From NCBI GenBank assembly GCA_965116925.1, contig OZ220744.1:480001-544000 (forward strand): a DNA stretch of 64,000 bases, written 5' to 3'. This document shows positions 39,001 to 42,000 of the stretch, piece by piece. The position numbers are program-made. The stretch comes from Candidatus Poribacteria bacterium (lineage in GTDB: Bacteria; Poribacteria; WGA-4E; PCPOR2b). How positions within the stretch are numbered: the stretch's first letter is position 1; every line of letters begins with the position of its first letter.

Positions 39001-42000
39001 TGAAAAACAACATGTTCTTTGCGATTTCACCTATCACTACGGTCAAGAGTCTCGTACAGATCTTAGCACAAGTGGATCCAAACTTTGGCATGATCCAAAT
39101 GTTTTTGGTGAACATTCCCGAAACCTACAGCATCGGTATTGCTAGCCAAAATCGGGACAACGGTGTTGCAGGAGAGCTATTTATCTCGCTCGGCGATTTT
39201 AAGGAAATCATCATTATGCTTGTCGGTCTGCAGCAAATGGGAGGAATGCAGTAATTCGACGACACTAGTCTCATCAAGGAGCTGTTAAGTGATATGGTAA
39301 AGGTAGGAAGGAAGAAATGGAAGAACGGAAGGTATCAGTTCGTTGATTCGACACCTTCCGTTCTCGCTTAATCGTAGGAATCGCCTAATTTGTCGCCGTC
39401 TTTGCGGGAAAACCCGCGTTCGTGACAGCATCGGCCAATTGGACACTAGTGGCTTTGCCTTTTTCCAGTTTAACGATGGCTGTACCATCTGCTTGAGAAA
39501 CATCGGCACTAATCACGCCGGGAACGTTTGTAAGTGCGGCCCGCACTTTGGATACACAGCCACCTCACGTCATCCCATCAACGTTTAGTGTGATCTGTTC
39601 GTGAGCTGCCGGTGCTGCTTCAGACATATCGGTACTTGCAGCGGTTTCAGTTTCCGTAGCTGCGGGTGCTGCTGTCTCAGCTGCCTTTTCCATCTTCTTC
39701 TCTGAAGCACAGCCGATAGCAAATAGAATTGCGACGCAGCAAATTAGTGTCAGTTTTAATATGTGCATTTGGGTTACACCTCCTTTGGAATTGTAATCAT
39801 ATGTCTATCTATTGTATGCGACGATATCGATTTTGTCAAATAAAATATAAATTTTTCAATATAGGAGTTACGCAGTTGAGTTTGTAGTAGCGCAATTCAT
39901 TGCGCGTTCTTCCCTCCCCATAGGAGTTACGCAGTTGAGTTTGTAGTAGCGCAATTCATTGCGCGTTCTTCCCTCCCCCTGCTTGTGGGGGGTAGAGGGG
40001 GGGGACGGGCGATAAATCGCCCTACTATAAACCTTTGTCCCTACTATAGTTGCCCGATTCATCGGGTGTGAGAAACGGTATCCTGCGGTGATGAATCGCC
40101 GAACTACAAGGCTTTGACCATTCAACTGCATAAGTCCTAAAATTTTTCAATATAGAAGTTACGCAGTTGAGTTTGTAGTAGCGCAATTCATTGCGCGTTC
40201 TTCCCTCCCCATAGGAGTTACGCAGTTGAGTTTGTAGTAGCGCAATTCATTGCGCGTTCTTCCCTCCCCCTGCTTGCGGGGGTAGAGGGGGGGGACGGGC
40301 GATAAATCGCCCTACTATAAACCTTTGTCCCTACTATAGTTGCCCGATTCATCGGGTGTGAGAAACGGTATCCTGCGGTGATGAATCGCCGAACTACAAG
40401 GCTTTGACCATTCAACTGCATAAGTCCTAAAATTTTTCAATATAGAAGTTACGCAGTTGAGTTTGTAGTAGCGCAATTCATTGCGCGTTCTTCCCTCCCC
40501 ATAGGAGTTACGCAGTTGAGTTTGTAGTAGCGCAATTCATTGCGCGTTCTTCCCTCCCCCTGCTTGCGGGGGTAGAGGGGGGGGACGGGCGATAAATCGC
40601 CCTACTATAAACCTTTGTCCCTACTATAGTTGCCCGATTCATCGGGTGTGAGAAACGGTATCCTGCGGTGATGAATCGCCGAACTACAAGGCTTTGACCG
40701 TTCAACTGCATAAGTCCTACAATAATAACATAGTAGTAGGCATACTCCGTATGCCGTGACTTACCGAAAACGGCTTTATCTTGTAAAGCCCAAGCCTTTA
40801 GGCTTGGAGCCATTGGGGCGAAGCCTAGTATCGGGATTCCTGTTGAGTCCCGTAGTTGGGGCGATGGGGTCCCCGATAGGTGTCCGGTTCAATCCACACC
40901 TATCTAAACTCGGCTAACACAGCGTGTAAGAATCCCAATCCTTTAGCTTTGGGAGTACGTCAAATATATCCCCGCCGGCCATTGTGCCCCACTTATCTCT
41001 ACCCGAATCGCGCTAAACGCCCATCAACTCCCCTCGTAAGCATTCAACATCAACACGAGTACCTCTCCGCGCCGACGTATTACACGCCTCCATCAATATC
41101 CATGTCCCTAATGTGCTTTCCTGTAACCACTCCCGATTTTTGCCGGTGGAGAGTGCATCTGCAAAGGCATTAAATTGGAGACGGTCATCTTCGACCAGTC
41201 CGGGATGGAGGTCTTGAAGCTGGCAGTCTTTAACACATTCACCCTTACGAAAAAGTTGAAGATGTCCCGCGTCTCGTCGAATATCCCCATTTTCTCCGTG
41301 AAAACTCCAATGACCGCTCCAGCCGAATGGATTTGCATGGGAGGCGTTCGTTCCCGTATAGCAGAAAGGTGCACCATTTGGGTATTCCAGCAACGCTTGA
41401 CCACCCGCTGTGCCCCAGACGCCGGTCCGAGCAATATCATGGTCTTCCCGTTGGTGGATGCACGCCGTCACATATTTCGGAAGGCCTTTCGCTGCAACCA
41501 GTTGATCGAGTTGATGTGCGGTGGCGGCGTGAAAGAAGATCCCTTCGACGTAAGCATCCGGATAGCGTGAATTATCTGCACGCCAGAGATTTTGCCGAAT
41601 CCAGAATCGACACTCCCCACCGAGCATGTCGCCGATACCATCCGCCCCACGCAACCACTCACGCATCTTTGAAGCGGCAGGATTCCAGCGTTTATTTTGT
41701 CCCTGTACCAGCATCAGATCGGGATGTGCCTTGCGAACCTTGATAATTTCCCGAAACTCATCCGGCGTTGTTGCAATCGGTTTGACACACAACGTGTGCA
41801 GCCCAAGATTTAGGCTTTCGACAACCAGCTCTGTGTGCACCGGTGTTGAAGCATAGATGAGACATACTTCTGCATGATGTCTCGCCCGCGCTTCCGTGAT
41901 TGTTGTATAGATCCGGTCCCCAAGTCCTTCAGGTACATCGCCCTCCAAAGATCCTACCCCTTCTTGCGCTTCGTCGAGGTTGATATCCACACAGGCGACA

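Follow-up and report, generated by a model that had tools for sequence, protein, structure and literature searches.

A gene on the minus strand of a Candidatus Poribacteria genome, at positions 39385-39768 of the window (the whole stretch of 64,000 nucleotides that was analysed), forms a single frame of 127 codons plus a TAG stop once its one in-frame TGA is translated as selenocysteine (U). We are confident that the product is a selenocysteine-containing exported lipoprotein with a heavy-metal-associated (HMA) domain, for which we infer selenocysteine insertion, lipidation and metal binding. All coordinates below are window positions, and all features given coordinates lie on the minus strand. 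Translation table 11 yields a 67-aa stub alone (39565..39768); the selenocysteine would be residue 68, encoded by the UGA at 39565..39567 in the context ...ITLNVDGMT-U-GGCVSKVRAALTNVPGV..., and would provide the first ligand of a U-G-G-C metal loop whose Cys71 is encoded at 39556-39558. The earlier note on this DNA had described such a stub reading through its TGA into a 127-aa HMA lipoprotein, and we recovered the identical sequence; its view of the product as an exported protein with selenocysteine in a GMT-U-GGC loop is likewise supported by the frame, the predicted fold, the hairpin and the conservation described below. The proposal as a whole, in which a genuine selenoprotein gene gives rise to a tethered exported HMA protein with a soft-metal site, Cu(I) being the favoured metal, we consider probable.

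The gene is flanked by plausible expression signals. A promoter-like site (TTGACA-17-TACAAT, 39811..39839) is proposed from its agreement with the consensus at 11 of 12 positions, and a Shine-Dalgarno-like AAGGAGGTG, recognised from the sequence, lies at 39777..39785, 8 nt upstream of the ATG. A terminator-like 17-bp hairpin (39321..39365; -27.6 kcal/mol, z -3.97) lies between this gene and its convergent neighbour, directly 3' of the stop codon; its folding was equalled by 0 of 200 shuffles, and it is not among the sites listed by a simple terminator scan. In three runs of one study, RNA-library contigs 2.6-5.4 kb long span the stretch at 95-99% likeness, and in one run labelled as a sponge metagenome four short contigs cover 39403-39819 only, at 90-95% likeness. 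The TGA is preserved in all of these contigs, which say nothing about transcription, transcript ends or levels; nor do the stretches that they leave uncovered carry any weight. In public gene calls of relatives the gene appears either as a stub ending at the TGA (P0005, P0007) or with tryptophan at that codon (P0002, P0003, P0006).

The first 20 residues form a predicted signal peptide with a lipobox (MHILKLTLICCVAILFAIG-C, 39709..39768), in which Cys20 is the predicted lipidation site and AlphaFold2 (AF2) places a helix at residues 3-19. In a 45-sequence alignment (A2) Cys20 is invariant, so that by sequence the signal peptide would end as those of bacterial lipoproteins do; the 90 distinct family members used elsewhere in this work were chosen with a lipobox filter and are thus not an independent count of lipobox presence. 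An acidic linker rich in Ala, Thr and Glu follows (residues 21-55, 39604..39708) and is predicted to be disordered, with pLDDT below 50 at residues 24-51. Linkers across the family are 20% acidic and 6.4% Met, with at least four Met in 20 of the 90 members; that of the window's own protein has two Met and one His. Residues 56-125 (39394..39603) make up the HMA domain, which matches Pfam PF00403 over residues 60-120 (51.1 bits, cut-off 24.8; E 1.8e-13) and is predicted at pLDDT above 90 with the beta-alpha-beta-beta-alpha-beta fold (E56-63, H71-80, E85-91, E96-102, H108-117, E122-124). The metal loop connects strand 1 to helix 1; U68 and C71 fall within it and at the beginning of the helix.

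The case for recoding begins with the conservation of the TGA. Every one of the 139 genomes sampled from the order has a match to the protein. The earlier note had counted an in-frame TGA in 60 of 61 genomes, and a repeat across the order agrees with it: all 101 genomes searched have a match, and among the matches listed the best one carries one in-frame TGA in 95 of 96 genomes, these 96 being the genomes with a best match inside the listing of 150 matches. G004 is the only one of the 96 without a TGA in its best match, which is a Cys form (GMTCGAC); three of the five genomes outside that listing (G005, G009 and G021) have small ORFs with one TGA in a separate search. Tandem second copies were also found, in line with the several gene copies per genome reported before. 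The TGA occupies the same codon in four families of the order, over protein identities of 33-99%, and of the 90 distinct members 89 have a UxxC motif, one has CxxC and none UxxU. The residue aligned with U68 is Cys in L060 (GMTCGAC), in P0004 (GMTCGGC; a Cys homologue 59% identical) and in the HMA consensus.

The sequence beyond the TGA evolves as coding sequence. Outside the hairpin, column entropies 3' of the TGA are 0.78, 0.70 and 1.58 for codon positions 1, 2 and 3, and the stretch is therefore translated; invariant HMA residues also occur 3' of the UGA in the 45-sequence alignment. In L045, L052, L059 and L060 the same gene closes with a TGA used as its stop, which argues that the lineage does not use TGA as an ordinary sense codon. 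The genome itself has the complete selenocysteine machinery: selA (607 bits, cut-off 268), selB (373 bits, cut-off 242) and tRNA-Sec (76.6 bits, cut-off 47) form one cluster, and selD (369 bits, cut-off 125) has its own TGA. We conclude that the TGA very probably encodes selenocysteine.

The earlier note had lacked a SECIS analysis; we ran one, and it was positive both in covariation and in fit to a published bacterial SECIS (bSECIS) model. A SECIS-like hairpin lies at 39532..39548, with a 7-bp stem (AAGUGCG/CGCACUU) and a GGC loop, 16 nt from the UGA to the stem and 23 nt from the UGA to the loop, at -8.2 kcal/mol (z -2.9). The bSECIS model in the Fig. 2A legend of PMC13188914 specifies a loop of 3-9 nt, a stem of 4-16 bp, an MFE of -7.5 kcal/mol or lower, a G in the first two loop positions and 16-37 nt from the UGA to the loop, and the window hairpin fits this model in all four respects. 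Across the family the stem is 6-7 bp and RNAalifold recovers the hairpin unprompted. Paired cells make up 93.3% in 83 sequences, against 19.8-49.1% with the partner slid, and the covariation score was matched by none of 500 shuffles. At pair 33:41, 75 sequences have GC, four AU and four GU; at pair 35:39, 62 have AU and 18 GC. G36 is invariant in the family hairpins, and by inspection of the loop list 82 of the 83 loops fit N-G-[G/U]-N-N.

Codon usage points the same way, as the synonymous sites in the hairpin arms are frozen. In the 5' arm the Val codon is GTG 85 times out of 89, whereas in the rest of the same genes GTG accounts for 196 of 951 Val codons; in the 3' arm GCA serves as the Ala codon in 80 of 81 cases, compared with 164 of 794 in the rest. 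The arms code for a conserved V-Q-x-A-L, and part of the hairpin conservation is thus protein-driven. As controls, five Cys-type lipoprotein paralogues, four CopZ-like genes and two CopA HMA domains, folded over the corresponding interval, gave 0 to -5.1 kcal/mol, out of register, and the hairpin is thus absent from these Cys-type paralogues; the Cys forms L060, L182 and L186 retain a weaker version of the hairpin (-5.4 to -5.6 kcal/mol). We note that 33 of the 83 family hairpins only are at -7.5 kcal/mol or lower (median -7.4), and that the short hairpin alone stands out: in a 50-nt context the MFE structure of the window sequence is another fold (z -0.25), at 71 nt z is -0.87, and in longer context the hairpin pair is part of the MFE fold in 56 of 83 sequences. 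An Rfam scan of 39000-41200 with E up to 10 returned no SECIS family and nothing else apart from chance-level microRNA-type matches in the upstream repeat.

HMA selenoproteins as such are already known, and the new part is the Poribacteria-wide branch of lipoproteins with UxxC. The claim of the earlier note that a stand-alone HMA selenoprotein would be a new kind does not hold, since two selenoprotein families with HMA-type parts (NF041115 and NF045683) are already curated and a UxxU protein is listed in both PMC9312934 and PMC13188914. Its statements on the literature are borne out: PMC13188914 has no occurrence of 'PF00403', and table 1 of PMC9312934 lists an ATPase with UxxC, MerT, a 'putative mercuric reductase' with UxxU and CopZ/2Fe-2S forms. 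The lipoprotein UxxC branch was not found in the accessible selenoprotein lists, nor was the phylum Poribacteria found in the accessible selenoprotein surveys.

The branch scores under the cut-offs of all the curated HMA selenoprotein models compared. NF041115 ('UxxU_metal_bind' metal-binding (seleno)protein) is likewise small, with selenocysteine in the CxxC loop, and positions 1-71 of its 74-position, HMA-size model align with residues 54-124 here; the Poribacteria protein reaches 57.8 bits with this profile model, whose cut-off is 95 (best E among 45 members 5.2e-18). However, that family has two selenocysteines (UxxU) where the Poribacteria protein has one (UxxC), and its model leaves no space for the signal peptide, lipobox and 35-residue linker. 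Positions 147-231 of the 235 in NF045683 ('MerT/CopZ fusion-like heavy metal transport selenoprotein') align with residues 42-126 at 43 bits against a cut-off of 375, and its MerT membrane part is absent from the Poribacteria protein. The HMA domain of the UxxC ATPase (PMC9312934; PMC13188914) has the same replacement of the first Cys by selenocysteine, but it is cytoplasmic and part of a pump, whereas the protein described here is stand-alone and would be exported. CopZ/Atx1 models (NF047957 CopZ_AFE_1862, NF033794, NF033795) are the best-scoring named models and share the fold and the M-x-C-x-x-C-type loop, at 61.4 bits against a cut-off of 85; in contrast to the Poribacteria protein with its export signal, CopZ is cytoplasmic with about 70 residues. 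MerP (TIGR02052; PDB 1afi, 1osd) shares the exported single HMA domain and the GMTCxxC-type loop, at 55.2 bits against 92.55, and is free in the periplasm with Cys, whereas the Poribacteria protein would be lipid-anchored through its linker and carry selenocysteine; MerT and MerA partners are missing, and no mer genes were found within 15 kb at 14 loci. Two further candidates were set aside. NF041046 ('UGSC-containing protein') was considered as an earlier name, as some members here have GMTUGSC; it is probably thioredoxin-like (GOS paper) and does not appear among the NCBIfam matches found for the Poribacteria protein. Table 2 of the GOS paper names a 'MerP' selenoprotein, which does not serve as a precedent, its two sequences being identical 33-residue fragments (...AGTUCQSG...) with a loop unlike GMTUGGC.

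For the function of the protein we favour the following reading. SelB carrying Sec-tRNA(Sec) would insert selenocysteine at UGA codon 68 in response to the hairpin 16 nt downstream, giving a pre-lipoprotein of 127 residues instead of the 67-residue stub. The signal peptide would take it across the cytoplasmic membrane, Cys20 would be lipidated, and the flexible acidic linker of about 35 residues would tether one MerP/CopZ-type HMA domain on the periplasmic side. In the G-M-T-U-G-G-C loop the U68 selenolate and the C71 thiolate would bind one soft metal ion, and the protein may serve as a periplasmic copper buffer or hand-over chaperone, for example for copper exported by the CopA-type ATPase of the same genome. 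Selenium would have the advantage that its selenol remains ionised in an oxidising compartment and has a stronger hold on soft metals than a thiol has.

Cu(I) as the main metal is a tentative choice, which we infer from several observations taken together. The genome's sole other HMA domains are two of Cys type on an 893-aa CopA-like frame; no MerT over cut-off was found in this genome or in any of 61 genomes of the order, and the best MerA-family match in this genome is under the cut-off (389 bits against 454). The CopZ model matches all 45 aligned members at E 1e-5 or better, with the lowest best E of any family (8.4e-20), and the linkers are Met-rich in the 20 of 90 members mentioned above. 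Methionine motifs are known from periplasmic Cu(I) proteins. CopZ and MerP are nevertheless close, at 61.4 and 55.2 bits with NCBIfam models and 60.1 and 65.4 bits in a PDB profile search; the mere two Met in the linker of the window's own protein and the neighbourhood, in which no metal-related gene was found, also tell against the copper reading. The earlier note had proposed a copper or mercury chaperone; in the absence of a mer system the classical MerP role is not supported, and it is the copper half of that proposal that we tentatively retain.

We consider it unlikely that the same selenocysteine lipoprotein acts instead as a periplasmic sink for Hg(II) or for soft toxic metals in general (Hg, Ag, Cd), shielding other proteins from them, MerP-like and without a MerT/MerA pathway of import and reduction. 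Foldseek ranks MerP first for the predicted domain (1osd, rmsd 1.1, TM 0.94 on the target), and among single-domain matches MerP likewise leads the PDB profile search; it is also the classical periplasmic HMA protein, and selenolate binds Hg(II) with very high affinity. The MerT and MerA results and the sub-threshold MerP score given above argue against such a sink, as does the presence of the gene in every one of the 139 sampled genomes, which looks more like housekeeping than accessory resistance.

The earlier note had also pointed to open frames of 530-590 aa with a TGA in the HMA stretch, and these exist, at 535-588 aa in one search and 557-562 aa in another. Reading them as ATPase- or MerA-like proteins is wrong, however: in these related Poribacteria they consist of cytochrome c (PSCyt1), WD40 and a C-terminal HMA domain, with the same hairpin. 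In our own count of the listed matches from 31 genomes, 41 of 52 TGA matches are on frames of 111-195 aa and 11 on frames of 535-588 aa, and 39 of 39 HMA domains on frames of at least 690 aa in the 31 genomes have no stop. Export and selenocysteine do not strictly go together: Cys-type lipoprotein paralogues occur in one family (f4), and the cytochrome-WD40-HMA proteins of one genus (g1) carry Cys. CopZ-like genes of Cys type, 76-103 aa long and with GMSCQHC, are found separately in Poribacteria. No metal-related genes were found among the neighbours of the gene, at its own locus or at those of relatives. In some genera the gene adjoins a multihaem cytochrome. A conserved convergent neighbour of 614 aa is without a Pfam family, and in a protein atlas it retrieved hypothetical proteins of Planctomycetota only, with DUF3352 in 19% of one cluster.

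The cytochrome fusions and the adjoining multihaem cytochrome speak for U-x-x-C being a redox couple (selenenylsulfide/selenol-thiol) in a periplasmic oxidoreductase or electron shuttle, perhaps acting with the cytochrome c-WD40-HMA proteins of relatives, and known bacterial selenoproteins with UxxC are mostly redox proteins according to PMC13188914. We hold this to be very unlikely, as the fold is that of a ferredoxin-like HMA domain and not thioredoxin-like, the close structural and sequence matches are all metal binders, the metal site of this family is marked by just such a G-M-T-x-x-x-C loop, Met included, and no cytochrome-HMA fusion was found in the genome studied here. Hardly credible is a true stop at the TGA, leaving either an HMA gene that is split or in decay or a lipoprotein stub of 67 residues with an untranslated remnant, as the table 11 frame and the relatives cut at this codon in public calls (P0005, P0007) would suggest, given the same-codon TGA over four families, the coding periodicity and invariant HMA residues beyond it, the covarying hairpin, the complete selenocysteine machinery and a C-terminal half that alone has no start codon and ribosome site that would include the metal loop.

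Returning to the favoured reading of a tethered copper-binding selenoprotein, we can put it in a wider setting, which we regard as speculative and rather doubtful: an order-wide, selenium-dependent system of extracytoplasmic metal handling in Poribacteria. One module of selenocysteine-HMA domain and compact SECIS hairpin may have spread by copying, both into the tethered lipoproteins, of which a genome has one to three, and to the C-terminus of periplasmic cytochrome c-WD40 proteins, while ATPase-size HMA proteins may have stayed with Cys. If this is true, selenium would have been selected because it lets a soft-metal site function under oxidising conditions, and fusion to a cytochrome would link the capture of a metal with electron transfer, for example through a redox change of the bound metal.

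The known kinds of selenoproteins are unchanged by the finding. For annotation, the gene is split or mistranslated in public calls, so that protein databases do not show a protein which every sampled genome of this order of sponge symbionts encodes. The short, strongly conserved and covarying hairpin, with its built-in negative controls, is a handy test case for SECIS prediction. One lineage offers the same exported domain both with selenocysteine and with Cys, alongside Cys-only HMA domains on ATPase-size frames, and so provides a natural series on the role of selenium at a metal site. Should the wider reading be true, selenocysteine would have a use that is new, and sponge symbionts a periplasmic metal pathway that is likewise new.

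Given read-through of the TGA at window positions 39565-39567, the gene forms a single frame of 127 codons from 39768 to 39385 on the minus strand, with U in G-M-T-U-G-G-C, which confirms the read-through described in the earlier note; the ORF under translation table 11 is limited to 67 residues (39565..39768, minus strand). The sequence encodes a signal peptide with lipobox (MHILKLTLICCVAILFAIG-C), an Ala/Thr/Glu-rich linker of about 35 residues and one heavy-metal-associated (HMA) domain, in whose metal loop the TGA occupies the position of the first cysteine; Pfam PF00403 matches it at residues 60-120, with 51.1 bits where the cut-off is 24.8. 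On the same strand, a consensus match to a promoter (TTGACA-17-TACAAT) is found at 39839-39811, AAGGAGGTG lies 8 nt ahead of the ATG, and a predicted 17-bp hairpin (-27.6 kcal/mol) lies directly 3' of the TAG stop, so that the gene looks like a compact self-contained unit.

We consider it very likely that this TGA is decoded as selenocysteine (Sec), and, as judged from sequence, there is a high probability that a genuine selenoprotein is encoded. Five lines concur in this reading, namely the position of the codon, its conservation, the coding character of what lies behind it, a SECIS-like hairpin and the presence of the Sec machinery. Cys stands opposite the U68 codon in locus L060, from a close relative within the order (GMTCGAC), in the public metagenomic protein P0004, a homologue with 59% identity (GMTCGGC) that its source names 'copper chaperone CopZ', and in all the solved HMA domains that were matched. 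Among other public homologues, P0002, P0003 and P0006 have Trp at the Sec position, apparently via a TGA=Trp code, and P0005 and P0007 end at the TGA. An order-wide search gave a match in 101/101 genomes, and the best match carried exactly one in-frame TGA in 95 of the 96 genomes whose best match is among the matches listed (none in G004, another genome of the order), in agreement with the order-wide conservation claimed earlier. The 90 distinct lipoprotein-type members extracted from 70 loci carry U in 89 cases and C in one, this set having been chosen by a filter that demands a lipobox and being therefore unusable for counting lipoboxes. Across 83 Sec forms (ungapped alignment), column entropy outside the hairpin is 0.78, 0.70 and 1.58 at codon positions 1, 2 and 3, and the HMA residues C71, V75, L79, G84, V85, V90, L111 and F120 behind the TGA are invariant. 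In several members a terminal TGA serves as the stop of the same gene, so TGA is no ordinary sense codon in this lineage. The window's own genome has selA (607 bits), selB (373 bits) and tRNA-Sec (76.6 bits) clustered near 2.374-2.377 Mb, as well as selD (369 bits) at G000:C1:6018631-6019551 (plus strand), whose single in-frame TGA makes SelD a probable selenoprotein too. A further possible one is the 506-aa frame listed at G000:C1:5117624-5117908 (minus strand), which has one TGA and weakly resembles the MerA family of flavoprotein disulfide reductases.

The SECIS-like hairpin, AAGUGCG-GGC-CGCACUU, lies at 39548-39532 on the minus strand, 16 nt behind the UGA (-8.2 kcal/mol, z -2.9). It falls within all four constraints for bacterial SECIS elements given in one figure legend (a 4-16 bp stem, a 3-9 nt loop with G in its first two positions, a UGA-to-loop distance of 16-37 nt and at most -7.5 kcal/mol; PMC13188914, Fig. 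2A legend). The same helix was recovered unprompted by RNAalifold in the family; 93.3% of its cells are paired, against 19.8-49.1% with the 3' partner slid by one to three columns, and its covariation score was matched by 0 of 500 shuffles. Two pairs vary on both sides, 33:41 (75 GC, 4 AU and 4 GU sequences) and 35:39 (62 AU and 18 GC), and the loop G in column 36 is invariant. Synonymous sites are frozen within the hairpin: the Val codon of the 5' arm is GTG in 85/89 genes, compared with 196/951 at the other Val positions of these genes; for GCA as the Ala codon of the 3' arm the figures are 80/81 and 164/794; and third-position entropy falls from 1.58 outside to 0.60 inside. The hairpin is absent from control genes of these genomes: five lipoprotein paralogues of Cys type (from the order's family f4), four CopZ-like small genes and the two HMA domains of CopA, folded over the corresponding stretch, gave 0 to -5.1 kcal/mol, out of register. 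Three Cys forms retain a weakened hairpin (-5.4 to -5.6 kcal/mol) and look like recent conversions. We would like to note that several points speak against the Sec reading. The hairpin is small, and its conservation is partly protein-driven because its arms encode a conserved V-Q-x-A-L; in longer folding contexts it belongs to the minimum-energy structure in only 56/83 sequences, and the window sequence itself adopts another fold. Family energies are borderline (median -7.4 kcal/mol; 33/83 at or below -7.5, 82/83 at or below -5), and an Rfam scan returned no match at the hairpin region.

In a phylum sample of 151 genomes (E 1e-8 or better), the Sec-HMA gene was matched in 139/139 other genomes of the order, across four families and with the window's own genome not counted, in 3/8 genomes of other orders of the class and in 0/3 genomes of other classes. 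The multiple copies per genome that had been reported are borne out in families f2 and f3, where two tandem copies are present in many genomes. The window's own genome has three HMA domains only, two of Cys type on an 893-aa CopA-like frame and that of the Sec-HMA lipoprotein. In 31 genomes from the order, no stop interrupts any of the 39 HMA domains that lie in frames of at least 690 aa, and the 52 TGA-bearing matches (row count) lie in frames of 111-195 aa (41) or 535-588 aa (11); Sec thus occurs in frames of the two exported types and in none of ATPase size. Exported frames are not always of Sec type, as Cys is found in lipoprotein paralogues of f4 and in cytochrome fusions of genus g1.

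The long open frames with a TGA in the HMA stretch (535-588 aa) exist as described. They are neither ATPases nor mercuric reductases, but join a planctomycete-type cytochrome c and a WD40 propeller to an HMA domain at the C-terminus, with the same loop and hairpin. These proteins, of about 560-590 aa, occur with Sec (metal loop GMT-U-GAC; one protein has two such domains) at L183:4536-6245 (minus), L184:4538-6220 (minus) and L185:2473-4620 (plus) and with Cys at L182:4857-6635 (minus) and L186:1808-3556 (plus), all loci of related genomes; the window's own genome has none.

The neighbourhood offered no metal-related clue at the loci examined. In family f1 the convergent neighbour of the gene is a conserved secreted protein of 614 aa (37410-39254, plus strand) with no Pfam family, which keeps its place there, and beyond it lie DUF4432 and a MacB-like permease. 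Protein atlas relatives of the 614-aa protein are hypothetical only and mostly from Planctomycetota; in one cluster 19% carry DUF3352. The other flank is variable: it holds either sugar-type oxidoreductases with aldolases or a multihaem cytochrome together with a TPR protein. Directly upstream of the promoter, at 39849-40723, a 290-bp tandem repeat is present in three copies (99% alike), every one of which has two 59-nt units bearing a GCGCAATTCATTGCGC palindrome. The unit recurs in 40-54 nt pieces at 39 further genome places, and the repeat resembles a REP/MITE-type dispersed repeat. ORFs of 67-101 aa in this region were rejected as repeat artefacts.

AlphaFold2 (45-sequence alignment) gave pLDDT > 90 over residues 56-125 in the order strand, loop, helix, strand, strand, helix, strand, with U68 and C71 at the first loop and helix start, the signal peptide as a helix and no confidence at residues 24-51. 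Foldseek places Ralstonia metallidurans MerP first (1osd, TM 0.94 on target, rmsd 1.1), ahead of copper-ATPase domains and CopZ. These results support an HMA domain that is exported, anchored by a lipid and carried on a flexible tether, with Se and S as the two ligands of its site. We infer copper ahead of mercury as the metal, because the only other HMA system in the own genome is a CopA-type pump, the best-scoring named family is a CopZ model (matched by 45/45 aligned members with the lowest best E-value of any family) and 20/90 members have Met-rich linkers (up to 10 Met in 50 residues). Methionine motifs of this kind are known from periplasmic Cu(I) proteins. The lipoprotein may instead bind Hg(II) or soft metals generally, as MerP, the classical periplasmic HMA protein, matches about as well as CopZ. 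However, MerT is over cut-off in 0/61 genomes of the order, no MerA is over cut-off in the own genome, and the gene is universal in the order rather than accessory. The suggested copper or mercury chaperone is a reasonable reading, in which copper is the likelier metal and mercury a possible one, and a true MerP role is disfavoured.

The claim of a first stand-alone HMA selenoprotein must be lowered, since Sec in HMA-type sites is on record in tables of PMC9312934 and PMC13188914 (a P-type ATPase with UxxC, a MerT selenoprotein), and further curated cases are the UxxU metal-binding (seleno)protein NF041115 and the MerT/CopZ fusion selenoprotein NF045683. Nevertheless, the Sec-HMA lipoprotein scores below every curated cut-off (CopZ_AFE_1862, 61.4 bits against 85; NF041115, 57.8 against 95; MerP, 55.2 against 92.55), and its lipoprotein form, linker and one Sec set it apart from these families. 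Full-text searches of the accessible literature on selenocysteine or selenoproteins in connection with HMA, MerP, copper chaperones or Poribacteria gave no mention of it; PF00403, Poribacteria and sponge are absent from PMC13188914, and HMA, heavy, CopZ and MerP from the deep-Sep and BSepDB main texts. The 'MerP' selenoprotein family of the GOS survey consists of two identical 33-residue read fragments (PMC2398784, supplementary file 3) without a recognisable HMA metal loop. We regard the Sec-HMA lipoprotein as a branch, of lipoprotein form and order-wide, of a selenoprotein kind that is already known, a branch absent from the catalogues consulted. Loci L187-L191 of f4 encode Cys-type HMA lipoproteins (G-[LMI]-K-C-G-[SN]-C), and that of L187 stands in tandem with a Sec-type copy, the two forming a natural pair for comparison.
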